29,806 nt of DNA, from assembly GCA_019116965.1 (NCBI GenBank), contig DXAT01000041.1, forward strand, positions 1-29,806, written 5' to 3'. This document shows positions 105 through 13,090 of the stretch, piece by piece (positions within the stretch are counted from its first letter, which is position 1; each line of letters starts with the position of its first letter). A program made the translations under genes and the position numbers. The notes below the pieces were generated by a model. That model worked only from the letters and a program-made list of their open reading frames with translations, searched no databases and was not told where the DNA came from. This stretch comes from Candidatus Coprenecus pullistercoris (GTDB taxonomy: Bacteria; Bacteroidota; Bacteroidia; Bacteroidales; UBA932).

Positions 105-698
105 ATGGCAGTAAGGACTGATTTGCCGCAGGTGGCGGCTTTGAGACAGGCCGTGGAGAAGCGGTTCGGGCGTACGGTTGGAAGCCGTGCGGATTTTGCT
201 CTCCTGGCATCGGAGATAGAGTGTATAACCAGTGAGCATATCGCCGAGAATACGCTGCGGCGGATATGGGGCAGTCTGAAAGGTTATGAGACTGCGTTTG
301 ACAGGACTTTGGATGTGCTGTGTCACTATATCGGATTCAGCGGCTGGGAGGCTTTCTGCAAGCATGTCAGGGAGGTGAGCGGAAAGGAGTCGGACCTGGT
401 CTCCGGCGGCAGGTCGGTGAGGACGGATAGCTTGCAGGCAGGGGACCGGCTTCGGATAGGCTGGCTGCCGGACCGGCTGTGCGTGGTGGAACTGGAGGAC
501 GGACGCACATTCAGGGCGGTGGAGGCGGAAAATTCCACGATACGGCCCGGAGATACTTTTGAATGCAGCCTGTTCATCCTGGGTTATCCGCTGACCGTTG
601 ACAATTTCGTGCATGACGGACAGGCGGTGCCCCGATATGTGATGGGTATTGACCATGGGCTTACGACTTTGGAACAATTAAAATCATCTGATTTATGA
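105..698 (+). CDS. Hypothetical protein. Stop overlaps the start of the downstream kinase (ATGA), suggesting a co-translated partner.
   Basis: 197-aa ORF in the track. Its TGA (696-698) overlaps the ATG (695-697) of the kinase gene. No family recognised from sequence. Confidence 0.5.
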   Translation: MAVRTDLPQVAALRQAVEKRFGRTVGSRADFALLASEIECITSEHIAENTLRRIWGSLKGYETAFDRTLDVLCHYIGFSGWEAFCKHVREVSGKESDLVSGGRSVRTDSLQAGDRLRIGWLPDRLCVVELEDGRTFRAVEAENSTIRPGDTFECSLFILGYPLTVDNFVHDGQAVPRYVMGIDHGLTTLEQLKSSDL

Positions 699-1975
699 AA
701 ATACATTCCGGTTCGGTAGATGTTTCCGGTGTTTCGGGACAGGATGGTATCGTCATCTTGGGGTCAATAAGCGAGGGGCGGATGTTCCGTACCCTGAAAG
801 CCAGGCACGGAACGAGATATGTGGCTCTTAAAGCGGCCGTTGAGGACAATGCGATGTCTGTCTCGCTTCTCAGGCGGGAGTATGAGCTGTGCAGGGACCT
901 GTCGCATCCATGCGTGGTGAGTATTTTAGGGTTCGAGGAGGATACTCCTGCCGGTCCCGCAATCGAGATGGAGTACATCTCGGGGCGTACTCTGGATGAG
1001 TTCGTGGCGACGGCTCCTTCTGCCGCTCAGCGCAGGGCAGTGCTCAAGGATATTCTGGACGGAATGGATTATCTGCATCACCGGGGAATCCTGCACAACG
1101 ACCTCAAGCCGGACAATATCGTGGTCAATGCCAACGGGGCCGCCCGTATCATAGATTTCGGGTTGTCGGTCAGCGAGGACAGTGTCTATGCCGGGGCGGT
1201 GGGAGGCACTTGCGGCTACTCCGCTCCGGAAGTCCTTCAAGGGGATGGCTCTGCCGGAGCCGCATCGGATATCTATTCGCTCGGCCTGATAATCAACCTG
1301 CTTTTCGGCGGTCGCCGCTACCGCAGGCTCGCCCGTCGCTGCAGCCGTCCCGAACCGGCAGAGCGCTTCCAGAGCATCCCGGATCTGAGAAAAGCTCTGA
1401 CTGCGACGGACCGTCGTCCCTTTATCTGGGCAGGAACAGGAGCCTTGCTGCTTGTATTGTCGGCCGTGGTGTATGCCCTTGATGTAAAAAACAAAAATGC
1501 CGGCGAGCAGATCGAGACTTTCAGCAAGCAGGTTCTGGAAGAGACCGGACAGATGTACCGCGATGCGGTGGACGAGATGAAAACGGCCGTTGACAATATA
1601 CCCGTGGACTCTGTCGTAGACAGCCGTATGCAGCAGAAGGCGGATGATGAGACCGCCCGCTTTGAGAGATTCATGAAGCAGGCCATGACGGAGACCGAGC
1701 AACTATACCGCAGTGCTGTTGACTGCATCAAGGCAGCACAGGATCAAAAGACTATAGATAGTGTAAGGTTCAGTTTCACTGATGACTTCGGAGAATATTT
1801 AATGTCGTTGCCGAAGAGGTATCCGGCGGCAGAGCCGGGAACATTTTCCCCGGAGGTTTGGGCGGCTCATGAGATATACAAGCTGCGGCTGGCTCAGTTT
1901 GACTCTGTAATGTCTGAGATTTATCCGTCATTACCATGGGATGCGGATGAAAATGAAGCGGCGGAATCCAGATGA
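695..1975 (+). CDS. Membrane-anchored Ser/Thr protein kinase (Hanks-type). N-terminal kinase domain, one TM helix, acidic C-terminal extracytoplasmic domain with an internal tandem repeat.
   Basis: Catalytic loop HNDLKPDNIVV, DFG-like IIDFGLS and GTCGYSAPE activation segment. Hydrophobic segment PFIWAGTGALLLVLSAVVYAL. C-terminal ~45-aa duplicated units (QMYRDAVDEMKTAVDNIPVDSV / EQLYRSAVDCIKAAQDQKTIDSV). Confidence 0.85.
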   Translation: MKIHSGSVDVSGVSGQDGIVILGSISEGRMFRTLKARHGTRYVALKAAVEDNAMSVSLLRREYELCRDLSHPCVVSILGFEEDTPAGPAIEMEYISGRTLDEFVATAPSAAQRRAVLKDILDGMDYLHHRGILHNDLKPDNIVVNANGAARIIDFGLSVSEDSVYAGAVGGTCGYSAPEVLQGDGSAGAASDIYSLGLIINLLFGGRRYRRLARRCSRPEPAERFQSIPDLRKALTATDRRPFIWAGTGALLLVLSAVVYALDVKNKNAGEQIETFSKQVLEETGQMYRDAVDEMKTAVDNIPVDSVVDSRMQQKADDETARFERFMKQAMTETEQLYRSAVDCIKAAQDQKTIDSVRFSFTDDFGEYLMSLPKRYPAAEPGTFSPEVWAAHEIYKLRLAQFDSVMSEIYPSLPWDADENEAAESR

Positions 1976-1990: not shown

Positions 1991-2013
1991 GTCAAACTGA
2001 AATCATATTGATG

Positions 2014-2694
2014 TTATAAGAGTATGTCCATCAGTTCCTGAGCGTCTTCCAGTGCTTCTTTGGCGTCCTGGAGGTCCTGCTCGAGATCTTCGTCAATGGT
2101 TTCATCGAATACATCCTTCAGGTCCTCCTCTATGCTTGTAGTGGATGTATTTCCGCTGTCATCGGATACCCTGTAGTAGGCGTAGATGTCAAAGGCAATA
2201 TCGAAATCTGCAATCTGGTCGATGATGCCGGTCTCGCCTAACAGGGCATAGCAGAAAGTCCAGTTGTAGCTGTCGCCTACGCTTGACCAGTTCAGCATTT
2301 TCTCCAAGTTTTCTATATTGACGAGTTTCATGTATATGCTTTCTCCGTCTGCATTCTTGATCGGATCACCCTGTGTGTCGTAGATCTGCAGTTCGAAATC
2401 CTCAGCCGATACCGATGAGGCCCAGGAATCCGGGAAATCCTTGATGACCTGAGCATATACGGATACATAGAGTTTGTCGTCTTTCACATAGAACTTGTAG
2501 GAGCCGTCCGGTACCGAGATGTAATCGTCTGCGTCATAAGTCTCGCTCTCTTCCGTGTCGGAGTTCTCATAGCAGATATCTCCGTAAAGCTCGACATCTC
2601 TGACGGCTACCTCTTTTGAGGTACCTCCTCCGCAGGATGTGGCAGCCATGACGGATGCGGCCGCCGCAATGATTGTGATAAAAGTTTTTTTCAT
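2014..2694 (-). CDS. Acidic lipoprotein, hypothetical.
   Basis: Signal peptide plus lipobox Cys (MKKTFITIIAAAASVMAATSCGGG). Highly D/E-rich C-terminal half. Confidence 0.7.
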   Translation of the reverse strand: MKKTFITIIAAAASVMAATSCGGGTSKEVAVRDVELYGDICYENSDTEESETYDADDYISVPDGSYKFYVKDDKLYVSVYAQVIKDFPDSWASSVSAEDFELQIYDTQGDPIKNADGESIYMKLVNIENLEKMLNWSSVGDSYNWTFCYALLGETGIIDQIADFDIAFDIYAYYRVSDDSGNTSTTSIEEDLKDVFDETIDEDLEQDLQDAKEALEDAQELMDILL

Positions 2695-2714
2695 CTTTAT
2701 TTAAATATTAAGTG

Positions 2715-4538
2715 TTAAAGTTGCTTTGCCTTTGTTATGTCGAATGATTCCGCACACAACCTCATCTCATTGTTGTATTTGATGCTGATCTGGTAGATTA
2801 TGGACGGATCCTTTTTCTTTTTCCCCTTCTTTATGATATTGCACAATACTGTCCGGTTGTCGGTATCCACATCGACAATCTCATATCCGATGATATCGCA
2901 GAACGGTTTGAGCCGGTCTGCAAAATCGGCTTGCCAATAAGATACTGTAGATTCGGTATAGAAGAAATCTTCGCACGAACCATTGTCTGTTGTGCTGTAA
3001 GCAATCTTTGATGCTTTGCTGGCATCTACCATGAATTCAAAGGGAGCGCGTAATGAATAGACGGTAATTTCCTTTGATATATTTTTCAATGTCGTGTTGT
3101 AGTCATTGATAGAATTCGTCTTGATGATAACTCTTTGCGAAATGTCAGGACTATAAGATAAAAGGCAGTAGTTGTCATTAAGTTCCATGAGCTGTAAGTC
3201 CTTGGAATCGCGCAGTGCAGAGGAAATAGAGCGCAGGATTTCCGAATCGCTTAAGTTCATTCCTAATTTGGTGGCTGTGGCTTTGCCCGAGTTTATTGAC
3301 TGCTTTATGTATGATCCGGCATCTACCTGATCGGAGCCGAAAATGGCTTGGCTCAATGTAACGGCCTGTGAGGCAATGGCTGCATTGATGCAGGAGTCTA
3401 CCGCATTCATCTGTTCCGAAGTGAGATATGCCTTGTGTTCATAGTTGGGAAGCTTTATTGACGGATTCTGTAGATAGTTTTTGAAACCATCCCAGTTCCT
3501 GATACTTATGTACGCCTGGTCTTCATCTGTATTGATGCACCAGTAAATATCGCCCTCTTTGCTGATTAGCGGATCAGAGTATCTATCGTCCAGTGTGAAC
3601 TTTTTGACGGTTTCAACCAGATATGCGGCTCCCTCATCGCTGATGTATGCTCTTTCAGTAAGATATTCATATTTTGGATTGTTCCTTTTGCTCAGGTTGT
3701 ACCCTTGCAGGCTTTCGAAATCGAAACCGTCCTTGAGGGACAATATAGCCATCCTGGCGTAGTTCCCGATGGTCAGACTGTCTTGTCTTATTGTATATCC
3801 GAGATTCAGCAGCTGCTCCTTGTTTATTTCCCCGGCAGCATATTTTCTTGACATCTCGGTGACGGCCGGTTTTGTAGAGGATTTTCTGGTCGTCTTGCTT
3901 ATCAGGACTCCGTCAATAAATTCGTATTTGTCGTTACCTATTATCCATGTTCCGGTAGGGATTCCTTCCGGGTTAAGGCTTCCCTTCACGGAAGTGGTCA
4001 TGCCCTCCCTGCCATATTTGTTCGGGCCGATGTATTCGTATGCGCCGGTCAATATTCCGTTGTCATAGTGAGCATTCAGCAGGACGGCTCCCCAAATGTC
4101 GTAATCTTCTAAGGAAATATTGTTTTTGACTTTGAAATCGCCATGTGGTATTCCTCCCTTTATGAAGTTTCCCGAAAAATTACATTGCATATTTACTGGA
4201 GTGTTGTTTAGACTTCCGGAGACTTTGCATGATGATGACGCCGCTCCATAGAGCCCGCCATTGGAAAATACCGCATCCAGTTTATATCTTACATCAAGAT
4301 TGCCCCAAAGTGTAAGGCGATTGAATTCATAAGATTCTTGTGCATTGATATTCAGGCTTCCGTCTTTGATGTTTGAACCGTTTTCTCCAATGATGTAATG
4401 ATAATTCGCTTTACCAGTAATAAGTCCGAGTGATGTGGCTTTGGTGTAAGTGACTGTGTTTTGTTTGCGTTGGGCAAAGGATGTCCCCAAGCACATCAGG
4501 CATGCAGTGCCGAGCAATAGGATTTTCTTCATTTTCAT
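2715..4538 (-). CDS. Secreted hypothetical protein (607 aa) with Gly-rich, MORN-like short repeats.
   Basis: N-terminal signal peptide MKMKKILLLGTACLMCLGTSFAQ. Long uninterrupted ORF. 20-bp spacing to the downstream lipoprotein gene suggests an operon. Confidence 0.75.
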   Translation of the reverse strand: MKMKKILLLGTACLMCLGTSFAQRKQNTVTYTKATSLGLITGKANYHYIIGENGSNIKDGSLNINAQESYEFNRLTLWGNLDVRYKLDAVFSNGGLYGAASSSCKVSGSLNNTPVNMQCNFSGNFIKGGIPHGDFKVKNNISLEDYDIWGAVLLNAHYDNGILTGAYEYIGPNKYGREGMTTSVKGSLNPEGIPTGTWIIGNDKYEFIDGVLISKTTRKSSTKPAVTEMSRKYAAGEINKEQLLNLGYTIRQDSLTIGNYARMAILSLKDGFDFESLQGYNLSKRNNPKYEYLTERAYISDEGAAYLVETVKKFTLDDRYSDPLISKEGDIYWCINTDEDQAYISIRNWDGFKNYLQNPSIKLPNYEHKAYLTSEQMNAVDSCINAAIASQAVTLSQAIFGSDQVDAGSYIKQSINSGKATATKLGMNLSDSEILRSISSALRDSKDLQLMELNDNYCLLSYSPDISQRVIIKTNSINDYNTTLKNISKEITVYSLRAPFEFMVDASKASKIAYSTTDNGSCEDFFYTESTVSYWQADFADRLKPFCDIIGYEIVDVDTDNRTVLCNIIKKGKKKKDPSIIYQISIKYNNEMRLCAESFDITKAKQL

Positions 4539-4559
4539 ATTCGATTAATTGTGAGTTGA

Positions 4560-4622
4560 TTGGTATATGCAAAGTTGCAAAAAGCGTCGTTTGGTTCAAT
4601 GGCCCTTTTTGGCCCTAATTCC
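4560..4622 (-). repeat. Truncated 3' part (~60 bp) of the X/20-mer repeat family. The 20-mer GGCCCTTTTTGGCCCTAATT (4601-4620) encodes the last 7 codons of the PD-(D/E)xK gene. A cAacTTTG -7-like box sits ahead of the 2715..4538 gene.
   Basis: About 55 bp align with 5680-5735 (tatgcaaaGttgcAaa...ggccctttttggccctaattcc). Confidence 0.7.
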
Positions 4623-5345
4623 TGCTTGGATGGTGGTAAGCAGGTATCTGAATCTGTCACCGTTCTTTGTAAGTGCGGTGATGGCAGTGTCGTCCCAGTG
4701 GCACAGGTAGCTGCCATGCAGCACGAAGTCCGGATGAGATCCGATGATTTTTTCAGAGATCTTTCCCCATTTCAGTAATCCGGGACCAATCCGATTCCCT
4801 TCATGTGTGGAGAATGCGCGATAGCTTACATCTGTACTGGGACCGTTCCAGTAGATTCTGTTGTTGGTGACGAGCAGGGCAACACCGTCGGTCATATTTG
4901 GGTAGCATTGATTCAAGGCCTCGATGCGGCGTATGTCTTTCCAGTAGTTGTACATAATGATATCTCCTGCGCCTTGGTTCTTAATGATCCGGCAACCTGT
5001 TTTCAAATCTTCTCCGAAACGGGAAGGTTGATTGATAACAGGGCATGTGGCATACTTAAATTCTACGGCGGCAAACCGGCCGTCTTTTTCCACCACCACA
5101 TCGATGGACAGGTCATTGTCCCATGGAAAATCTAAGCTCTCTTTTCCTACTTTCAGATGGCGGACGCATAATTCTTCTTTCGGCACGGCATACTCCATGT
5201 CCACTCTGTCGTAATGCTTCTTTTCTTTGAGCCACATGGTTATCCGCACCTGCAGGTCTCTTTCATTGAAGATGAGTTCCTTGTTGCTTTTCAGAAAATC
5301 CTCCAGGTCGCAACGCAGCAATGTCAACAGGTTGCTGTTTTTCAT
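4596..5345 (-). CDS. Stand-alone PD-(D/E)xK (restriction-endonuclease-fold) nuclease family protein.
   Basis: Motif SIDVVVEKDGRFAAVEFKY (D ... E-x-K with 13-residue spacing). Single-gene cassette bounded by the 20-mer repeats. Lower GC than the core genes. Confidence 0.65.
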   Translation of the reverse strand: MKNSNLLTLLRCDLEDFLKSNKELIFNERDLQVRITMWLKEKKHYDRVDMEYAVPKEELCVRHLKVGKESLDFPWDNDLSIDVVVEKDGRFAAVEFKYATCPVINQPSRFGEDLKTGCRIIKNQGAGDIIMYNYWKDIRRIEALNQCYPNMTDGVALLVTNNRIYWNGPSTDVSYRAFSTHEGNRIGPGLLKWGKISEKIIGSHPDFVLHGSYLCHWDDTAITALTKNGDRFRYLLTTIQAGIRAKKGH

Positions 5346-5398
5346 GTCGTTTAAAATTAAATGTGCAGGCGGACTCCTATCTCTGCCAATTTATTAAA

Positions 5399-5735
5399 AA
5401 GAAAGTGTGGAGCCGGTCCGTCTGTCTTTGAAGAGGTTCTGACAAAACCCGAATGTAGGCAGGCTGAACAATCCCCACACTCGTATCGATTGTGAGAATA
5501 CACAAGTCAATACAAGTGATGGTGCCGTCGTTGTCCTTACATTCGTTGAAACTGTCAGATTTCTTCAAAAGGACAGTGCGAAAACACTTTCACCAATATG
5601 TCCGCCACATGTTTTGTCACATGGCACTACAAATATACTAACTTTTTCCATAAAGCAGCACCTTGCAGGGATTGTTTCGTATGCAAATTTGCGAATATTT
5701 ATACAGATATGGCGGCCCTTTTTGGCCCTAATTCC
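5399..5735 (-). repeat. Full copy 2 of the ~330-bp noncoding element X plus the 20-mer (5714-5733). Candidate structured 5' leader or recombination module directly upstream of the PD-(D/E)xK gene.
   Basis: About 85-90% identity to 10966-11291 over ~330 bp. The reading frames of the small ORFs inside are not conserved between copies. Conserved hairpin ACTGTC-N15-GACAGT. Long-range helix AACAAUCCCUGCA/UGUGGGGAUUGUU on the minus strand. Confidence 0.8.
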
Positions 5736-6419
5736 GATTCAGGCAAGTATGGTGCAGTTCAAACATCAGCAGTCTGCAGGCATTTTGATATACCGTCGCC
5801 GGTCTTATGGATTATCGGTGTCTTTGGGGAGAGAAAAGGTATAAAACTTTTGGTACACCTCACTATCTGTAATCCGGTAATCGCCATAATGTGCACATAT
5901 TCAGCTGTTTGCTGCCGCAGCCTCATAACAGATACGGCGCTTTTTGCCTGGAATTCGCCTTAATACGGCCTTATCTGTTATGCAGATTTTGACATATGAT
6001 GCTAATATATAGTCATTTACATAAAGAATACAATAACAGATGCTAAGGTCTATTAGGTACGCGCCACGAAAATCCATCTGTCTACACCCCTGAAATCGGA
6101 TGCAACGGTATAATATGTAAGTGCGCGCACCTGATTTTGACAGATGTAATGGATAATCAGTTGGTTGTATTTGATGTAATATGCGCGTACTTTCCGTAAA
6201 TACACCGGCATAAGATGTCGTATGTGATGGATGTGGCAGGGAGGCAGGCTACAAGTCTTTTTGACCGCTTGCAGCCTGGCGCTCCACTCTCTGCCGAGGA
6301 CATGCTCTCTTGTATATGCTCCTTAGTGTGAGTAAGTTCCTATTTGCGACACAGGATAGGTCCCGCTGATATGGCCATGGACTTGGGCCCAGAGTCTTGT
6401 AAAGTGACAGCTGCGGAAT

Positions 6420-7067
6420 TCAGCGGAAAATGCCGAATTTAACAGAAGCGGTAACGCTGTCTCGGAAAGTCTGTCCACCTTTGTAGCGTTGATAATAAAA
6501 GAGGTGATATAAGGTACTGTTCCCTCAATTACGAAATCAGTGATTTCGCAATTAAATGGGTATAATTTTACTCTCCCCGTCAAGCATCTGAATTGGACAC
6601 ATAACCTGATACTTTTACAGCAGGTCAAAGACATACGGGCAAGGTATTGGCGCATGGTGCAATACATTGTGCCCCATTGGAATACCGCTATTTGCAGGAA
6701 GCCATTAAACTTGATGATTACGGCAAACACGGGGCTTTGGCAAACAATTTTACCGAAACCCTCCCTGCACCGGTATCTGGTGATTGAGCTGAAAGACACA
6801 GAGTTCATGCCGGAATATATCGGCAAGCTCAACTTCTACTGTTCCGCCGTGGATGATATACTCTGCCGTGAAGGTGACAATCGCACTATCGGCCTTTTGC
6901 TCTGCAAGACCAAGGACCGCATCAAAGCTGAATATGCCTTGCGCGATATTCAGAAGCCGATAGGGATTTCCGATTATGAATTGGGATAGGCTTTGCCGGA
7001 AGATTTTCGGGGGAGCCTGCCTACGATTGAGGAAATCGAAAACGAATTAGAGGCAAAACAATCCTGA
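6420..7067 (+). pseudogene. Degraded yhcG-like (DUF1016, PD-(D/E)xK nuclease) pseudogene. N-terminal region eroded, with an internal deletion and an in-frame TAG at 6987-6989.
   Basis: The 6540-6989 ORF carries LNWTHNLILL (N-domain motif) fused to YLVIELKDTEFMPEYIGKLNFYCSAVDD...TIGLLLCKTKDRIKAEYALRDIQKPIGISDYEL. The family C-terminus ALPEDFRGSLPTIEEIENELEAKQS continues in frame after the TAG, to 7067. Confidence 0.6.
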
Positions 7068-7353
7068 TATTCAGCAAAAATGTAGGAGAAAGTGGGTCAG
7101 TGGCGGTAGTCGCTGAGACCGAGATTCTTTCCCTTTTGGCTGCCATACCGAGCATGAGCATAATGTCCGGCTTCATGTACTGCAGTAAACCGGATACAAT
7201 TTCCGTTACTTTCCTGAAACTTACCGGTAACCGTACTGCCTTGACCCAATCTTTGAAACTGTCGCAGGATGCTGCCTCTGCGGCGACATCCCACGACAGA
7301 TTCCTGTCCCGGCCTCCGAACGGCTCAGATCCTGTAATCAATACCGATATCAT
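7021..7353 (-). pseudogene. pcp: Truncated pyroglutamyl-peptidase I (pcp) fragment. N-terminal ~85 residues are recognisable, then divergence or truncation.
   Basis: MISVLITGSEPFGGRDRNLSWD...LPVSF...KPDIMLMLGMAAKRERISV matches the Pcp N-terminus (VLLTGFDPFGG...NPSWE...PDIIICVGQAGGR..ITPERVAIN). The remaining ~130 aa are absent. The fragment overlaps the yhcG remnant convergently. Confidence 0.55.
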
Positions 7354-7448
7354 CAGAGCACTATCAACTGTAAATTAACAACATCTAAAACATTGCGTCA
7401 TACCTGTCAGTCGTTATTTAGCCTCTGTCCTCAGTTCATTAATTGTGT

Positions 7449-7793
7449 CTATGTATGCTTGGTCGTAAATCGTATAATTAAAATCATTATTAAAAGTAAT
7501 AATGCATTGACAATGATGTACAATGGTACAGAAAACTCAAAAAAAGCAAAGGTGAAATTAAGGACAAGCAGAATGAATAGAAAGATTCCACCAATAGTGT
7601 GCATGACAATACCGGCTCGCTCTGTATTGGCTTTTAAGGCAATAGTGAACAGGCCGGATACGACAAGTGCTATAAAAGTAGTAATCGTGGCAACCCATTT
7701 AAGGTCCTCAATTTTGACGATGCTGTATTCCCCCCAAGACAGTAATGCTGAGATGGCGACGGTGACTATTGTGTAGAAAATGTCTATTCTCAT
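7449..7793 (-). CDS. Small integral membrane protein (3 predicted TM helices), hypothetical.
   Basis: 114-aa ORF with three long hydrophobic stretches. Its start overlaps the stop of the upstream gene (7793/7795). Confidence 0.55.
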   Translation of the reverse strand: MRIDIFYTIVTVAISALLSWGEYSIVKIEDLKWVATITTFIALVVSGLFTIALKANTERAGIVMHTIGGIFLFILLVLNFTFAFFEFSVPLYIIVNALLLLIMILIIRFTTKHT

Positions 7794-7794
7794 C

Positions 7795-8124
7795 TCAATG
7801 TTTATTCAAGATTATTAATTTCATAATTTCAGGTATGAGTTTCGCCTGTGTCCAGCCGCTCATGCCTGGTTTCCACATTAAGGTGTCTTCTTTTATTTTA
7901 TAAGATGATACCAGTGTGTTTACTTCAGGCTCAGTAATGGGGCCAATCTGAACATTGTCCACGATAGCATAATATTGTGATTCTGTTTTTATGACAGGTG
8001 CTCCTGAACCAGGGGTTTGCATATTATCTATAACATGATTCATGGTCGCAATCATCTGCTGCGCGACGGCCATACTCATGCCGAACTCTAAAAGTCTGTC
8101 TAATGAATTAAACGAGTTGTCCAT
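7795..8124 (-). CDS. GYF_2 (DUF4339) domain protein. Paralog of the C-terminal domain of the SPFH protein.
   Basis: YYAIVDNVQIGPITEPEVNTLVSSYKIKEDTLMWKPGMSGWTQAKLIPEI parallels LAINGQQSGPFSIPQLQQLAQQGKINAQTYVWKPGMSEWIMAGQVDEL in the upstream gene. Confidence 0.65.
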   Translation of the reverse strand: MDNSFNSLDRLLEFGMSMAVAQQMIATMNHVIDNMQTPGSGAPVIKTESQYYAIVDNVQIGPITEPEVNTLVSSYKIKEDTLMWKPGMSGWTQAKLIPEIMKLIILNKH

Positions 8125-8144
8125 ATTGATTCAATTATGTTTGA

Positions 8145-9500
8145 TTATTGAGGCATTGGGGGCATCGGTGGTGGGGGAGGTGTGTTGGGTATAAATATGT
8201 TTTTAAGTTCATCGACCTGACCGGCCATGATCCATTCGCTCATGCCCGGCTTCCAAACATAAGTCTGGGCATTAATCTTTCCTTGTTGCGCAAGTTGCTG
8301 CAGTTGCGGTATGGAGAATGGACCGCTTTGTTGGCCATTGATTGCGAGCATATATGTCGGGATAGGTGGCGGGGGCGGGGTGTTCATGCCGTTTTGCATT
8401 GTCTGACCCATATTATTCATCATCCCTGCCATCTGACTGCCCATGGCTCCTCCCATCATCATGCCGGTCATCATTCCTGCGGCGTTCATGCCTCCTCCGT
8501 CTCCCATATAGCCCATGGCTCCGAGGTTTTCAGCTCCTGCCCGTAGGACACTAGCCTGCTGATCCAGTGCATGGGCCCCTATGAAATTGGTCTCAGTCTG
8601 CAGGCGTTGAGCACGCTGTGCTTCCTGTCGGTTGATACGCAAGGTCTCCTGCGTATTCTCTGCGTTTATAGCCTGTGTATCTGCCATATTCTTTATGCTG
8701 ACTTTGGTCTGTGCCTGGATTGTCTGCGCCTGTTGCATGGCGGTTACATGGCGGAGTTCCATATATCCATCGCTTTCTTTGTCTGGATCTATGCGGTTTA
8801 TATCCACTCGCTTGACATTTACGCCAAAATCTTCAGACAATTCCTTTGACAGCCGTTCTTGGAGAAGGTCTGATATCTCAGTTATTTTCCTTTCTATTTG
8901 CAGGACGGGGATGCCGTTGTCCTGAGGAGCGTTGCTGACAAATGACTTGACATATTTAGTGACGGCATCTTTTATTTGCTTGTTAAAATCTTCCAATGTG
9001 AAATTTATCATCCTGTTCAGCTTTATGAAAGCTTTATAGTCAGATATATTGAAAGTGATACTGCCTTGTACAGCCATCGGTACTGCGAAATCAAGAAACC
9101 GGGGATCAAATACATCAAAGAATGGAATTGTGAACTCGATTTGAATGTTTCGTGCAAGATTTATAAAATATATTTCCGCTTGGAAAGGAGACTCACCTCC
9201 ATAGGCTAAGCCTATAATGTTGGCCAAAACAGGAAAGTTTGCCGTTTCGATGGTCTCGTCATAAGGTCCTTCAATATAGTCTTGGAGTGTTCCGTCTTTT
9301 TGTTTGTACACAAAAACTGCCACTTCTCCGTCTTTTACCCTGAGGCTACTGCCAAAGCGGATGGAATTTTCCCTTGTGGTAGAATTTACATCTTGTCCTT
9401 CCGGTCTCCATTTCCAGACAAGATATTCTTTCTCATCACAGCGGATGACATTCATCATCCCCCCTGATTTTCCCTTTTTGCCAATTCCAAATAGTCCCAT
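8145..9500 (-). CDS. SPFH/Band-7 (Band_7_1, YdjI-like) domain protein with a Gly/Met-rich low-complexity linker, polyproline tracts and a C-terminal GYF_2 domain.
   Basis: N-terminus MGLFGIGKK...VIRCDEKEYLVWKW is typical of YdjI-type SPFH proteins. Coiled-coil Q-rich segment. GAMGYMGDGGGMNAAGMMTGMMMGGAMGSQMAGMMNNMG linker. TPPPPPIPT and NTPPPPPMPPMPQ tracts. Confidence 0.8.
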   Translation of the reverse strand: MGLFGIGKKGKSGGMMNVIRCDEKEYLVWKWRPEGQDVNSTTRENSIRFGSSLRVKDGEVAVFVYKQKDGTLQDYIEGPYDETIETANFPVLANIIGLAYGGESPFQAEIYFINLARNIQIEFTIPFFDVFDPRFLDFAVPMAVQGSITFNISDYKAFIKLNRMINFTLEDFNKQIKDAVTKYVKSFVSNAPQDNGIPVLQIERKITEISDLLQERLSKELSEDFGVNVKRVDINRIDPDKESDGYMELRHVTAMQQAQTIQAQTKVSIKNMADTQAINAENTQETLRINRQEAQRAQRLQTETNFIGAHALDQQASVLRAGAENLGAMGYMGDGGGMNAAGMMTGMMMGGAMGSQMAGMMNNMGQTMQNGMNTPPPPPIPTYMLAINGQQSGPFSIPQLQQLAQQGKINAQTYVWKPGMSEWIMAGQVDELKNIFIPNTPPPPPMPPMPQ

Positions 9501-9505
9501 GTTGT

Positions 9506-10342
9506 TTATATGCTCGGTTGGTTAAATAATGATATTAAAGCCTCTATGCCGCTTGATATTAGACATATCAGTAGGATTATGATTGTGACTTTCCATGCCC
9601 AGTGCAGGCGCTTGAACCATGCAAGAAAGCCAACCCCAATAACTTTTCGTTTAAATCTTGTGTAGTCATCAATAAACGGTTTGAAAATATCATCATTTTT
9701 GAAGCTGAGTTCTGCTTTGTTTATGCATTCCTGATATTTTTTCCAATATGCCATTCTGCATGGATCTGAGGAGTCTGTAATATGCGGCTTGGCGGATGTT
9801 AGAAAATCAAGCAAATCAGCCTTGGCATTTGGTATGGGAAAAGTCTCTATGATATTTATTCTTTTTTTTATATCCTCTACTTCTGATAATTTGTTTGATA
9901 ATTTTTCATAAGACATAGAGGCGTCAATGTTTAGGAACTCGTATCCGCAAGCTGTGCAAACAGGACTGAATGCTTTTACAAGGGCATTGCACTGAGGACA
10001 CCGGCGCACATCTCCGAATTTTTCAGATTTTGGAGCCGATAAATTAGACGGGGCGCTTTTTTTATTATTAATCTGGTTGTATTCGCTTAAGCGTGCATCA
10101 AGCACCATTTCAAATTCATCAAGGTCAATACCTTTTGCCTGGGCTTTTTTGAATAGTATTTGTTTTTCTTTTTCAGTTAAAGTACCGTCTATTATTGCGA
10201 GGTCAATGAGTTTTTCCATTTCTGCATCATAGAGTCCGGTCCGTGTTTGCGAGGATTGTGTTTTTCTCATTGTCATTTGTTGTGACGGAACTGAATTGAC
10301 CTCATCGTACAGTTCTTTAATTATATTTTTTAATGTAGACAT
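9506..10342 (-). CDS. Zinc-ribbon protein with an N-terminal TerB-like/co-chaperone-like helical domain and a C-terminal TM anchor.
   Basis: CPQCNALVKAFSPVCTACGYEF (C-x2-C ... C-x2-C). N-terminal LIDLAIIDGTLTEKEKQILFKKAQAKGIDLDEF. C-terminal hydrophobic VTIIILLICLISSGIEALISLF. Sits 5 bp upstream of the SPFH gene. Confidence 0.65.
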   Translation of the reverse strand: MSTLKNIIKELYDEVNSVPSQQMTMRKTQSSQTRTGLYDAEMEKLIDLAIIDGTLTEKEKQILFKKAQAKGIDLDEFEMVLDARLSEYNQINNKKSAPSNLSAPKSEKFGDVRRCPQCNALVKAFSPVCTACGYEFLNIDASMSYEKLSNKLSEVEDIKKRINIIETFPIPNAKADLLDFLTSAKPHITDSSDPCRMAYWKKYQECINKAELSFKNDDIFKPFIDDYTRFKRKVIGVGFLAWFKRLHWAWKVTIIILLICLISSGIEALISLFNQPSI

Positions 10343-10354
10343 AAGGATTATATT

Positions 10355-10915
10355 TTACAGCCAGGAAAATATTTGATCAAGTTGTCCCAATAGTTCAGAG
10401 TTGCCGGTCTTGTCCTTGATCATCTCACCCAAAAGTTGAAAATCAAGATATAGCTCTTTGCCGATACTCGGCAAAGACTGAGTTATATACTTGACATTTG
10501 ATGATGATGACAGGGCTTCTCTGGCAGTCATTGATTTGACAATATCTGTAATGTTTGTGAGTGATGTTGTTAGCTCAGCTAATTTCCCTGCAAGTTGAGT
10601 GACTTCTTTACCTAAGCCGTATAGTTCATCTATTGATGGCGAGGCACTTTTGTTTTCTGCATTATCTTCAAGATCAAAATAAGTGATATAGAAATTTTTG
10701 ATAATAGGACTGATTCTGATTGTTACATCAGCGATTTCTTTGCAGGTTTTTGCGGCATTGTCAATAATGTCAACCCCGCAGTCTTCTGGTAAGTCAAGAT
10801 TTTGCATTTTCTCAATTCGTTCTTCTGATTCTTCGCACCATTCTAATGACTGGGGGAAAGCCATTTGTTGGAAAGAGAGAATCATAACCAATGTTGCAAA
10901 AAGTGCTCTTTTCAT
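10355..10915 (-). CDS. Secreted hypothetical protein. First gene after element X copy 3.
   Basis: Signal peptide MKRALFATLVMILSFQQMAFPQS. 12 bp upstream of the zinc-ribbon gene. Confidence 0.6.
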   Translation of the reverse strand: MKRALFATLVMILSFQQMAFPQSLEWCEESEERIEKMQNLDLPEDCGVDIIDNAAKTCKEIADVTIRISPIIKNFYITYFDLEDNAENKSASPSIDELYGLGKEVTQLAGKLAELTTSLTNITDIVKSMTAREALSSSSNVKYITQSLPSIGKELYLDFQLLGEMIKDKTGNSELLGQLDQIFSWL

Positions 10916-10965
10916 TACTTTTAATTTTTAGGTCAGTCGGCTCCCAGGACTGACGGGCTTATAAT

Positions 10966-11291
10966 AAGAAAGTGTGGAGCCGGTCCGTCTGTCTTCCAAG
11001 AGGCTCTGACAAAGCCCGAACATAAACAGACTGAAACAATCCCCACACCTGTATCGCTTGTGATGAATACACAACCAATACGGGTGACGGTGCTGTCGTC
11101 GTCCTTACGTTCGTTGAAACTGTCAGATTTCTTGGAAAGGACAGTGCGAAAACACTTTCACCAATATGTCCGCCATGCGTTTCCGTGCATGACGCCACAA
11201 ATATACTAAATTTTCATGTAAACAGCACCCTGTGGGGATTGTTCCGCAGGCAAATATGGGAATATTATTGACAGCCTCCCCGGCCCTTTTC
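10966..11291 (-). repeat. Full copy 3 of the ~330-bp element X plus a 20-mer variant GGCCCTTTTCGGCCCTAATT (11272-11291). Lies between the hipT stop and the SPFH-module operon.
   Basis: Aligns with 5399-5735. Long-range 13-bp helix AACAATCCCCACA (11034-11046) / TGTGGGGATTGTT (about 11234-11246). cAtaTTTG -7-like box on the minus strand just inside the 20-mer. Confidence 0.8.
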
Positions 11292-11321
11292 GGCCCTAAT
11301 TTCGTCAAGCTTTGAGTTGTA

Positions 11322-12263
11322 CTATCCCAGCAGCTGCAGTCTGCCGGCAATTATTTTGATGAAGTTCTGCTGCATGTTCTCCGGAAGGAATGACAACCCT
11401 ATGAACATTTGCCATTTACTGAAGGCATTGTGGAATTTACTGAAGATATTCTCAATGATTTTCTCCTCCAGTCCGCAGGCCGACATCTCGGTGATGAAAT
11501 CAGCCTTTTTGATTTTACGTTTCTTGCCGTTGAGAGTCAATGCGAGTTCCTCGGTGTCTTCCGGCATAACCAACGCTGTGGACAGCATGTCGTATGCCGG
11601 TGTGAGAGTGTAGTTGCCGGCCAGCTTGCTGTAGAGGGAAAAGTTTTTCAGGTGCATATCGGCATTGCCTGTAATCCAGGAAAATACCACCTGCTCCCAG
11701 AAATTGACTAGATCAAGTTTGGGTACGGATGAGTATTTTCTTATGGTTTTCGCTATCTGGCCGTATGAGCCCCGGTATTTATGCTCTGTAAGACGTTCCG
11801 TAAGCTGGCACATGTCTTCCATTGCCAGTTTCCCTCCGTTGGCGGTGCGGTCGATGCGTCTGGTTATATAGCACAGTTCTCTGTCGGCGAAACGTATCAG
11901 GCTGTGCGGGACTACTTTCATTTTGGCCAGTTCAGCCAGATGCATGGTTAGGTCTTCCACTTCCGGAAGATTGCTGAAGCGGTCGGTCTGCGGCTTGAGA
12001 ATGTACCGGCCCCACAGTCCTACGATAGTGAAGCGCTCTTTTCCGCCCGGCCTGTCCTTGCAGATGTCCAGGGACAATTTGGCCTGAACTCCTGTCAAAG
12101 TGGTCTGGCTGCGGATTACCTGCTTCGCAAGGTCAGTGAGATTGTCCCGGGTGTACGGTAGCACCGGAGCCTCGGGAGCTCCGAATATTTTTTTCGCACA
12201 TTCCCTATGAAAATCCTTCTCATTCTCGTGCAGCTCCTTATAGCAGTAAAGACATTTGGCCAT
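11322..12263 (-). CDS. hipT: HipT-like kinase toxin (HipA C-terminal kinase core) of a tripartite HipBST system.
   Basis: 313 aa. HipA-family catalytic loop GNADMHLKNFSL. Lacks the HipA N-terminal subdomain, which is encoded separately upstream. Confidence 0.85.
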   Translation of the reverse strand: MAKCLYCYKELHENEKDFHRECAKKIFGAPEAPVLPYTRDNLTDLAKQVIRSQTTLTGVQAKLSLDICKDRPGGKERFTIVGLWGRYILKPQTDRFSNLPEVEDLTMHLAELAKMKVVPHSLIRFADRELCYITRRIDRTANGGKLAMEDMCQLTERLTEHKYRGSYGQIAKTIRKYSSVPKLDLVNFWEQVVFSWITGNADMHLKNFSLYSKLAGNYTLTPAYDMLSTALVMPEDTEELALTLNGKKRKIKKADFITEMSACGLEEKIIENIFSKFHNAFSKWQMFIGLSFLPENMQQNFIKIIAGRLQLLG

Positions 12264-12265
12264 GA

Positions 12266-12595
12266 TTATTCCTCCTTTTCTGTTATCGGTTCAACACCTA
12301 CAGCTCCTATGCAGTCCTTGCAGCAGGCCAGCAGCAGGGACATGCGGTCCCGTGCGTCAATTTTCCAATTCCTCTCAGCGATGTCAAGCAGCCAGCCTTC
12401 GGGAATCAGGCCGTCGAAAAAGGGAAACAGGACTTTGTCCCTATAGGGTCTGTCGGTCAAAGGCAGAGTAAGACTTATGGCCTCAGCCTTTTCTGATGTC
12501 AGAAATCCGCCGTCATACTGGAATGTGTAGCCGTTTTCATCTTCTGTAAGGATGCCGGCCCTCTCGCCGCGTAGATATACCGTCGCCTGTTTCAT
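12266..12595 (-). CDS. hipS: HipS-like protein (HipA N-terminal subdomain homolog). Antitoxin of HipBST-type systems.
   Basis: 109 aa, MKQATVYLRGERAGILTEDENGYTFQYD resembles the HipA N-terminus. 2-bp gap to hipT. 4-bp overlap with hipB. Confidence 0.75.
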   Translation of the reverse strand: MKQATVYLRGERAGILTEDENGYTFQYDGGFLTSEKAEAISLTLPLTDRPYRDKVLFPFFDGLIPEGWLLDIAERNWKIDARDRMSLLLACCKDCIGAVGVEPITEKEE

Positions 12596-12813
12596 AGATC
12601 ATCGGTGTTTTTGGAGAGAGGGACTGCGCCTACTTCGCTGCCGAATAGGTTGAGAATCAAGTTGACTTTGTCCAGTCGGAGAGTCTGTTTGCCCTGCTCC
12701 AGCTCCCGGACAAAGCGCAGGCCGACTCCGGATTTCTCCGACAGGTCTACCTGAGTCAGGCCGTATTGCTTGCGCATGGCCTTTACGTATCTGGATAAGG
12801 TTGTTTGCTGCAT
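12592..12813 (-). CDS. hipB: HipB-like XRE-family HTH transcriptional regulator.
   Basis: 73 aa, helix-turn-helix LTQVDLSEKSGVGLRFVRELEQGK. First gene of the hipB-hipS-hipT operon. Confidence 0.8.
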   Translation of the reverse strand: MQQTTLSRYVKAMRKQYGLTQVDLSEKSGVGLRFVRELEQGKQTLRLDKVNLILNLFGSEVGAVPLSKNTDDL

Positions 12814-12828
12814 GATTATACCCTTTGG

Positions 12829-12850
12829 GGTACAAATATAACAAAATATT
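12829..12850 (-). promoter_or_regulatory. Putative hipBST promoter (-7 box TATATTTG on the minus strand, 12843-12850) with an overlapping palindrome TACCC-N4-GGGTA (12829-12842). Candidate HipB operator.
   Basis: Bacteroidetes TAnnTTTG consensus 22 nt upstream of the hipB ATG. The inverted repeat overlaps the predicted TSS. Confidence 0.35.
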
Positions 12851-13017
12851 CCAAAGATATCCCCGATAAGGTATAAAATACTTTAAATCTAATATGATTA
12901 TACCCGTTCAGGCGTATTGCCCCAAAAATACATCTTGCCCATAATGGTCTTGGAGATTGTCGAGCGGCGGGAAAAAGAGAAAAGCCCCTGGTGCCTTGTG
13001 GCGCCGGAGGCCTTTTG

Positions 13018-13090
13018 TGATCTGCTTGGGGCTCGAACCCAAGACCCCAACATTAAAAGTGTTGTGCTCTACCAACTGAGCTAGCAGATC
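13018..13090 (-). tRNA. tRNA-Lys (anticodon TTT)
   Basis: Reverse complement GATCTGC-TA-GCTC-AGTTGGTA-GAGC-A-CAACA-CTTTTAA-TGTTG-GGGTC-TTGGG-TTCGAGC-CCCAA-GCAGATC-A gives a perfect cloverleaf with anticodon UUU. CCA not encoded. Coordinates +/-1. Confidence 0.9.

Follow-up and report, generated by a model that had tools for sequence, protein, structure and literature searches.

The window analyzed here is a 29,806-nucleotide (nt) stretch of DNA from Candidatus Coprenecus pullistercoris, a member of the Bacteroidales (contig DXAT01000041.1 of assembly GCA_019116965.1). On its minus strand, it contains an open reading frame (ORF) for a 249-amino-acid (aa) nuclease-like protein, directly preceded by a repeated element that we call X and followed by the genes p607 and p226. 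An earlier reading of the same DNA, referred to below as the original prediction, had described the ORF as a stand-alone nuclease gene flanked by repeat units, with a possible role in defense or in a mobile element. The features at the locus are the following:

4596..5345, minus strand: nuclease-like ORF with an ATG start, encoding 249 aa, with the putative active site E28, D82, E95 and K97 plus K122/Q124
5346-5735, minus strand: X1, a complete X of type B (~390 nt), 82-86% identical to the second copy X2, directly preceding the nuclease ORF
5396..5591, minus strand: predicted structured RNA of X1, a rod of 7 nested helices with a U-run at 5400-5396 and the start codon ~50 nt downstream
5630..5637, minus strand: promoter-like box TATATTTG, which fits TAnnTTTG and is nearly invariant across X copies in a 28-copy alignment
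4601..4622, minus strand: 22-mer copy 1, GGAATTAGGGCCAAAAAGGGCC, overlapping the final 8 ORF codons and lying in the upstream region of p607
5714..5735, minus strand: 22-mer copy 2, 100% identical to copy 1, at the 5' edge of X1
2014..4538, minus strand: p607 (2715..4538) and p226, both secreted and lacking known domains, whose synteny with the nuclease gene is kept in a related species (L014)

The 249-aa protein matched no Pfam family at an E value of ≤1, no NCBIfam and no PHROG entry, and no PDB sequence was matched either by the single 249-aa sequence or by a profile of its family. Residues 81 to 97 (IDVVVEKDGRFAAVEFK) hold a D82...E95-x-K97 motif. An AlphaFold2 model of the protein was confident (predicted local distance difference test [pLDDT] score, 92.6; predicted template modeling [pTM] score, 0.90) and consisted of helix 28-42, strands 47-54, 79-87 and 90-99, helix 127-147 and strand 151-160, in this order. 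D82 is located on strand 2 of the model, and E95 and K97 are located on strand 3. The modeled fold is the canonical alpha-beta-beta-beta-alpha-beta PD-(D/E)xK core, and both the fold and the motif of this superfamily are present in the prediction. The model and the family-wide invariance of the site described below support the D...ExK core and the PD-(D/E)xK fold originally assigned to the protein. The C-terminal half gave no structural match, and no reader domain for modified DNA was detectable in it.

A word-seeded search returned 48 homolog clusters, none of which carried a Pfam domain. In an alignment of 39 homologs, residues E28, D82, E95, K97 and K122 were invariant and Q124 was nearly so; the helix motif K136-D137-x-x-R140-x-E142 was also invariant. 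When the family profile was searched against 1.84 billion representatives, 2,590 proteins were recovered at the cut-off of E≤0.001, 212 of them at E≤1e-30, mostly as full-length matches. D82, E95 and K97 were also strictly invariant, and E28 nearly so, in 72 diverse members that share 26-48% identity with the query. This strict invariance of the D/E/K residues is the strongest argument that the putative site is probably catalytic. The 249-aa protein is most likely a metal-dependent phosphodiesterase of the PD-(D/E)xK restriction-endonuclease-like superfamily, with a predicted nuclease activity. Its family is unnamed and has no studied member. Ten multidomain relatives contained no Pfam domain, save for a sub-threshold chance match to tRNA-synt_1d in P0084 (17.2 bits; cut-off, 23.3). 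Furthermore, profile searches did not place the protein in a housekeeping nuclease family (RuvC, Hjc, RecU, etc.), and the contexts of its homologs were variable rather than showing core-genome synteny. Placement in a housekeeping family with core synteny, the result that the original prediction had named as refuting it, was thus not observed.

A phage origin of the family was rejected: no family match was found among 50,697 phage records, there was no PHROG match, and the single IMG/VR match has an ordinary chromosomal island architecture. Distant relatives (~25% identity) are found as single genes. On small plasmids of Rhodococcus and Prescottella they adjoin rep/par genes, in Paracoccus the neighbors are prophage head genes, and in a haloarchaeon the gene sits between BREX-5 pglZ and AAA/UvrD/PD-(D/E)xK genes.

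We then surveyed the gene neighborhoods of the family at 88 loci, including 80 fetched metagenome loci and one fetched IMG/VR locus; 67 of the loci were well sampled. The window protein was the family seed, and neighbor genes were clustered after removing the nuclease family members. A full-length member was present in 85 of the 88 loci at a profile hidden Markov model (HMM) E value of ≤1e-40. Single-linkage BLAST had grouped 261 members in the 88 loci, as if the family formed tandem paralog arrays, but the profile HMM found one copy in 82 loci and two copies in 3. The 261-member cluster was a chaining artifact, and tandem arrays were therefore rejected.

The closest relatives of the window locus share parts of its layout. 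In L017, which encodes a protein 95% identical to that of the window, the order is hipB-hipS-hipT, X, the nuclease gene and then genes of 113 and 178 aa. In L014 and L016 (77% identity), a 5'-truncated X lies ahead of the nuclease gene. L014 also has the order seen in the window, with nuclease, p607 and p226 homologs of 77%, 79% and 53% aa identity, respectively, followed by a convergent kinase gene. Additionally, the identical 249-aa protein is encoded on five short metagenomic contigs, every one of which breaks within X.

At ≤60% identity, the nuclease gene was found in co-directional clusters with TerB, OmpA-like, DUF4230, DUF1232 and KAP NTPase genes at varied chromosomal sites. The commonest co-directional neighbor was C0, a 104-aa protein present in 60 of the 88 loci, followed by OmpA-like proteins (39/88), TerB (26/88), two small Lys-rich proteins (25/88 and 17/88), the 128-aa repeat protein C4 (17/88) and an ion-channel protein (13/88). 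A Ser/Thr kinase and DUF4230 were each found near the family in 8/88 loci, and a KAP NTPase was found in 6/88. The C4 module is also fused to the N terminus of one family member, P0047. Overall, at least one of C0-C5 was present in 53 of the 67 well-sampled loci (79%), and loci without any recurrent neighbor exist as well (e.g., L085, L114, L128, L129 and L132). The recurrent island of gut and rumen Bacteroidales (L060-L139, L006-L013 and L022) is co-directional, has a shuffled gene order and also includes a Zn-ribbon protein. No methyltransferase was found among the recurrent neighbor clusters scanned, and in the literature searched we found no description of the TerB/KAP/OmpA/DUF4230 gene combination.

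None of these clusters (C0-C6 and C8-C15, all members searched by tblastn) gave a match in the window. Of the recurrent neighbors, the kinase (695..1975) and the 197-aa protein that accompanies it are the only ones present in the window; both also border nuclease-family islands in other genomes. The window copy of the nuclease gene is thus an orphan, parted from its usual island neighbors. As originally stated, the island in the window contains no methyltransferase, helicase or specificity gene; the notion that a stand-alone gene is the typical state of this family does not hold, given that 79% of the well-sampled homolog loci lie in multigene islands.

The second element at the locus, X, occurs twice in the window. 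The second copy comprises the following features:

10916-11303, minus strand: X2, directly following hipT and preceding an unrelated 186-aa secreted protein
10953-11160, minus strand: predicted structured RNA of X2 (~210 nt), the counterpart of the X1 rod
11282-11303: 22-mer copy 3, 91% identical, at the 5' edge of X2

An invariant 22-nt block of X, used as a search block, was found in 29 stretches (~27 species representatives), with one or two copies per genome. Most of the hosts belong to the Rikenellaceae (Alistipes, Tidjanibacter and others), and the rest are Barnesiella, Coprenecus and unclassified Bacteroidales. X precedes the nuclease gene not only in the window but also in L017, L018, L014 and L016; the multigene islands of the homologs contain no X. 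Genes upstream of X are unrelated to one another, and those ahead of type-A copies are housekeeping genes, for example mutS and pgk. An obligatory hipBST partner upstream of X was ruled out, as this arrangement is true only of the window, L017 and L045. Downstream, a co-directional ORF begins 148-405 nt past the search block in 22 of the 24 loci whose downstream sequence is long enough, the distance being 212-270 nt in 19. These ORFs fall into 13 unrelated clusters, mostly of surface proteins, and have no common function. BspA-type LRR/BACON/DUF4988 lipoproteins account for 9 loci, and the other cargo includes PEGA and BACON proteins, zinc-ribbon membrane proteins, DUF4230, a PDDEXK_4 protein and the window nuclease.

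In the 28-copy alignment, X consists, in order, of an upstream insulator, a TAnnTTTG box and a leader of ~210 nt. The insulator is a hairpin plus T-run in type A, which comprises the majority of the copies and lacks the 22-mer, and it is the 22-mer in type B, to which the window's copies belong. We take TAnnTTTG to be the Bacteroidetes -7 promoter element and assume a promoter role for TATATTTG accordingly. RNAalifold predicted a single rod of 50 pairs, 14 of which show compensatory changes. In an independent count, 97.4% of the cells were paired, compared to 39-54% when the partners were slid, and the covariation score was 0.289, compared to 0.06-0.08; the observed value was reached by none of 500 shuffles. 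Folding the X1 sequence alone gave the same rod (-74 kcal/mol; z score, -5.65). Its closing helix is formed by GAAAGUGU and ACACUUUC (5591-5584 paired with 5408-5401), with the U-run next to it. An alternative pairing between GUGUGGGG and CUCCACAC is possible, and X also contains highly conserved unpaired nucleotides. The X of L017 (1589-1866) is a mosaic in which both strands of helix 2 match X1 and the interior matches X2, a pattern that would fit an exchange between X copies, by recombination or gene conversion, in which the pairing is preserved.

Since indels between the copies break every frame, X is non-coding, and a coding sequence was ruled out. A known RNA was also ruled out: in the window, X had no Rfam match at the gathering threshold, nor one when E was relaxed to ≤10, and 8 type-A X loci gave none at E≤1. 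We consider X to be a portable promoter followed by a structured leader RNA. As such, it represents a candidate new class of cis-regulatory RNA, more unusual than the nuclease-like protein itself.

With regard to the repeats, a complete X precedes the ORF and the ORF is the single credible gene between 22-mer copies 1 and 2, as the original prediction had stated. The repeat that it had described as a 20-mer flanking the gene is real, but it is 22 nt long, and copy 1 lies within the end of the ORF. The two perfect 22-mers form direct repeats around one gene, 1,113 nt apart. The 15-nt core of the 22-mer occurs 3 times in the window, compared to 0.01 expected occurrences, and none of 100 shuffles reached 3. 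Copy 1 is translated as GIRAKKGH-stop at the end of the nuclease ORF, and the L017 ORF ends at a TAA right behind ...TTIQ. An alignment of the junctions showed that ~19 nt present in both L014 and L017 (AAATCTCAC..TCGGATAT), among them the native stop codon, are missing from the window; the extension of the window ORF into the 22-mer is thus due to a ~19-nt deletion at the 3' junction. Furthermore, a degenerate sequence resembling the 22-mer is found at the corresponding position in L014, ahead of the p607 homolog. This indicates that the downstream 22-mer is ancestral upstream sequence of p607 and no scar of a cassette insertion.

The 22-mer occupies the same position of X in L017, L034, L036, L040 and L045. 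It holds the direct repeat GGGCC-N5-GGGCC, with a spacing of one helical turn. It takes the place of the hairpin plus T-run terminator of type A and may be a protein-binding or insulator site. Only three 22-mers are present in the 11-kb array of at least 10 genes, and there is no recombination-site repeat between successive genes. The multigene islands of the homologs contain no intergenic repeats. Some modularity is nevertheless apparent: the nuclease gene is known with two downstream contexts and with a full or a truncated X, and hipBST-X is followed by three different genes at three loci, namely, the nuclease gene in L017, the gene for the 186-aa secreted protein (p186) in the window and, in L045, a gene for a DUF4230 lipoprotein.

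The locus belongs to a larger region (window 2000-13000) with a guanine-plus-cytosine (GC) content of 37-48%, compared to 52-58% in the flanks, where core genes are found (a ClpB-like gene, gyrA and a gene for a Ser/Thr kinase). This region is a low-GC accessory island without an integrase or an attachment (att) repeat. Indeed, no tyrosine recombinase or integrase (Phage_integrase, XerD-like) was found among the scanned window ORFs of ≥100 aa, and no tRNA-derived att repeat, that is, no repeat of the tRNA-Lys 3' end, was found in the window. Integration of the island at tRNA-Lys by an integrase was ruled out on these two grounds. Two further features of the island are related to X:

11322-12813, minus strand: intact hipBST-type toxin-antitoxin module, directly downstream of tRNA-Lys (13017-13090)
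5787..5833, minus strand: hipS-like remnant, comprising the 5' end of the gene and upstream sequence, 85% identical to 12574-12620

The intact module encodes a HipB-like helix-turn-helix protein (73 aa), a Couple_hipA protein that resembles HipS (109 aa) and a HipA_C protein that resembles HipT (313 aa), and its promoter region contains a repeat of GGGTATAATCAT. A second hipBST-type copy has been deleted, and the remnant at 5787-5833 is its trace. The remnant implies that X1 descends from a hipBST-X module like that formed by the intact module at 11322-12813 and X2. X2 is followed by an operon (7449-10915, minus strand) for five proteins without a PADLOC match: a secreted protein (186 aa), a protein that combines a DjlA/TerB-like region with a zinc ribbon (278 aa), an SPFH plus GYF_2 protein (451 aa), a GYF_2 protein (109 aa) and a multi-pass membrane protein (114 aa). 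Two gene fragments are located between X1 and X2. One (6540-6989, plus strand) corresponds to the C-terminal part of a YhcG/DUF1016 PD-(D/E)xK nuclease, and the other (7021-7353, minus strand) corresponds to the first 80 residues of a pyroglutamyl peptidase (Peptidase_C15). Both look like debris of earlier rearrangements.

Compared to known systems, the window protein shares its fold with the type II PD-(D/E)xK restriction endonucleases (HincII, BglI, BamHI/OkrAI and BglII) but has no detectable sequence relationship to them. Its family-specific C-terminal elaboration matches nothing, and unlike type II restriction-modification systems, it has no adjoining cognate methyltransferase gene. It differs from the Cas4/RecB-family and MGME1/AddAB nuclease domains in having neither an Fe-S cysteine cluster nor a QxxxY in register, nor a helicase or CRISPR context. 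As for X, its own promoter, its covarying structure, its terminal helix plus U-run and the ORF close by at a fixed short distance resemble attenuating leader RNAs such as riboswitches and antitermination leaders. Unlike metabolite riboswitches, however, X precedes genes without a common function. It is a single long rod like 6S RNA, from which it differs in its tight coupling to an ORF downstream and in being present twice within 5.6 kb of an accessory island. The array as a whole recalls the rAID-1 and integron arrays in that it combines co-directional low-GC accessory genes with a repeated intergenic sequence in a Bacteroidales genome (10.1101/471110). rAID-1 arrays are defined by a 5' XerD-like recombinase, at least 2 co-directional downstream genes and a GC content of ≤41%, and repetitive intergenic sequences have been noted in them (Ross et al., 10.1101/471110). 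In contrast, the window array has no XerD-like recombinase at its head, and the GC content around the nuclease gene is ~45%, above the 41% limit. Moreover, its repeat is a promoter plus structured leader that is present twice, with no site between every gene. Membership in the rAID-1/integron group was rejected because of the missing recombinase.

Taking these data together, we lean slightly toward the view that the 249-aa protein belongs to an unnamed PD-(D/E)xK family, has Mg-dependent nuclease activity and normally works within TerB/OmpA/C0 islands, and that it has here been orphaned under X together with p607 and p226. The protein would act as a metal-dependent phosphodiesterase, most likely as a DNA endonuclease. 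In gut and rumen Bacteroidales, its family would normally form one part of a stress or conflict island, in which it would provide the nucleic-acid-cutting effector. In the lineage of the window, the nuclease gene would have been split from its island partners and joined to X. Since X is predicted to be a portable Bacteroidetes-type promoter with a ~210-nt leader that ends in a helix and U-run, it would set the expression of the nuclease gene, and probably that of p607 and p226 too, probably by conditional termination or read-through. A defense role of the protein is plausible. Several observations weigh against this view. No model of PADLOC-DB 2.0 matched the 249-aa protein, the window neighbors gave chance-level matches only, and no known defense gene adjoins the nuclease-like ORF in the window. 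The part of effector in a conflict island is one that we infer by analogy. Likewise, the terminal helix and the U-run are the only features that point to X probably being an attenuator, and since its cargo consists mostly of surface proteins, X may have no specific tie to the control of toxic nucleases. A more far-reaching version, in which X is a new cis-regulatory RNA class of Rikenellaceae and other Bacteroidales that responds to a signal and gates horizontally exchanged cargo (chiefly surface proteins, but potentially toxic nucleases as well) and the protein is the DNA-cutting effector, re-wired to X, of an undescribed TerB/OmpA/KAP/ion-channel conflict system common among Bacteroidales of the gut and rumen, is put forward tentatively and strikes us as somewhat doubtful.

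Alternatively, the protein could be a solitary defense nuclease, either type IV-like and modification dependent or of the abortive-infection type, that acts without partners. This would fit the lack of a methyltransferase or other partner in the window, the position of the gene in a low-GC variable region near a hipBST toxin-antitoxin module, the homolog contexts without a recurrent neighbor mentioned above, and the distant homologs found singly on small plasmids (Rhodococcus and Prescottella) or, in a haloarchaeon, adjacent to BREX-5 and helicase genes. We nevertheless consider it unlikely, as 53 of the 67 homolog loci belong to multigene TerB/OmpA/C0 islands, no modified-DNA reader domain is detectable and the PADLOC search was null. 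Less probable still is a non-defense function as a DNA-processing or repair enzyme, or as a DNA-binding regulator, serving a membrane-stress function of the TerB/OmpA islands. TerB, OmpA-like, ion-channel and DUF4230 neighbors do suggest envelope or ion stress rather than phage defense, small Lys-rich proteins that may bind DNA are frequent neighbors, and the phage and defense database searches were null. However, the strictly invariant catalytic triad favors catalysis over mere binding, and the islands occupy varied chromosomal sites with shuffled gene order, as variable accessory loci do. The KAP NTPases and the BREX-adjacent family members, which we take to fit conflict systems, also count against it. 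Finally, X and the nuclease gene could form a mobile cassette, with the 22-mers serving as integron- or rAID-like recombination sites for a site-specific recombinase. Two perfect direct repeats do bracket one gene, the downstream neighbors differ between L017 and the window or L014, three genes follow hipBST-X at three loci, and repetitive intergenic sequences are known from Bacteroidales rAID-1 arrays (10.1101/471110). Against this stand the missing tyrosine recombinase/integrase and tRNA-derived att repeat, the ancestral nature of the downstream 22-mer with its degenerate L014 homolog, and the ~19-nt deletion that accounts for the ORF overlap. Furthermore, type A, to which most X copies belong, has a hairpin plus T-run instead of the 22-mer, and the multigene islands have neither intergenic repeats nor X. 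We therefore regard such a cassette as very improbable. The reading of the flanking repeats as its bounds is weak, and the original idea of a repeat-defined mobile element was not upheld, given that the downstream 22-mer is ancestral and that X precedes many unrelated genes. The evidence for a mobile single-gene defense cassette, as first claimed, is modest.

Returning to the orphaned island nuclease that we favor, the protein family is new within a well-known superfamily, and X is absent from Rfam. The family is sizeable (~2,600 clusters at 50% identity) and has an intact nuclease active site, and yet it has no name, structure or studied member. The regularity with which it is found near TerB, OmpA-like, ion-channel and KAP NTPase genes suggests that bacteria abundant in the gut and rumen possess an accessory system as yet unstudied. 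If X is a true switch, it would provide a handle on the control of acquired surface and conflict genes in Alistipes-like bacteria.
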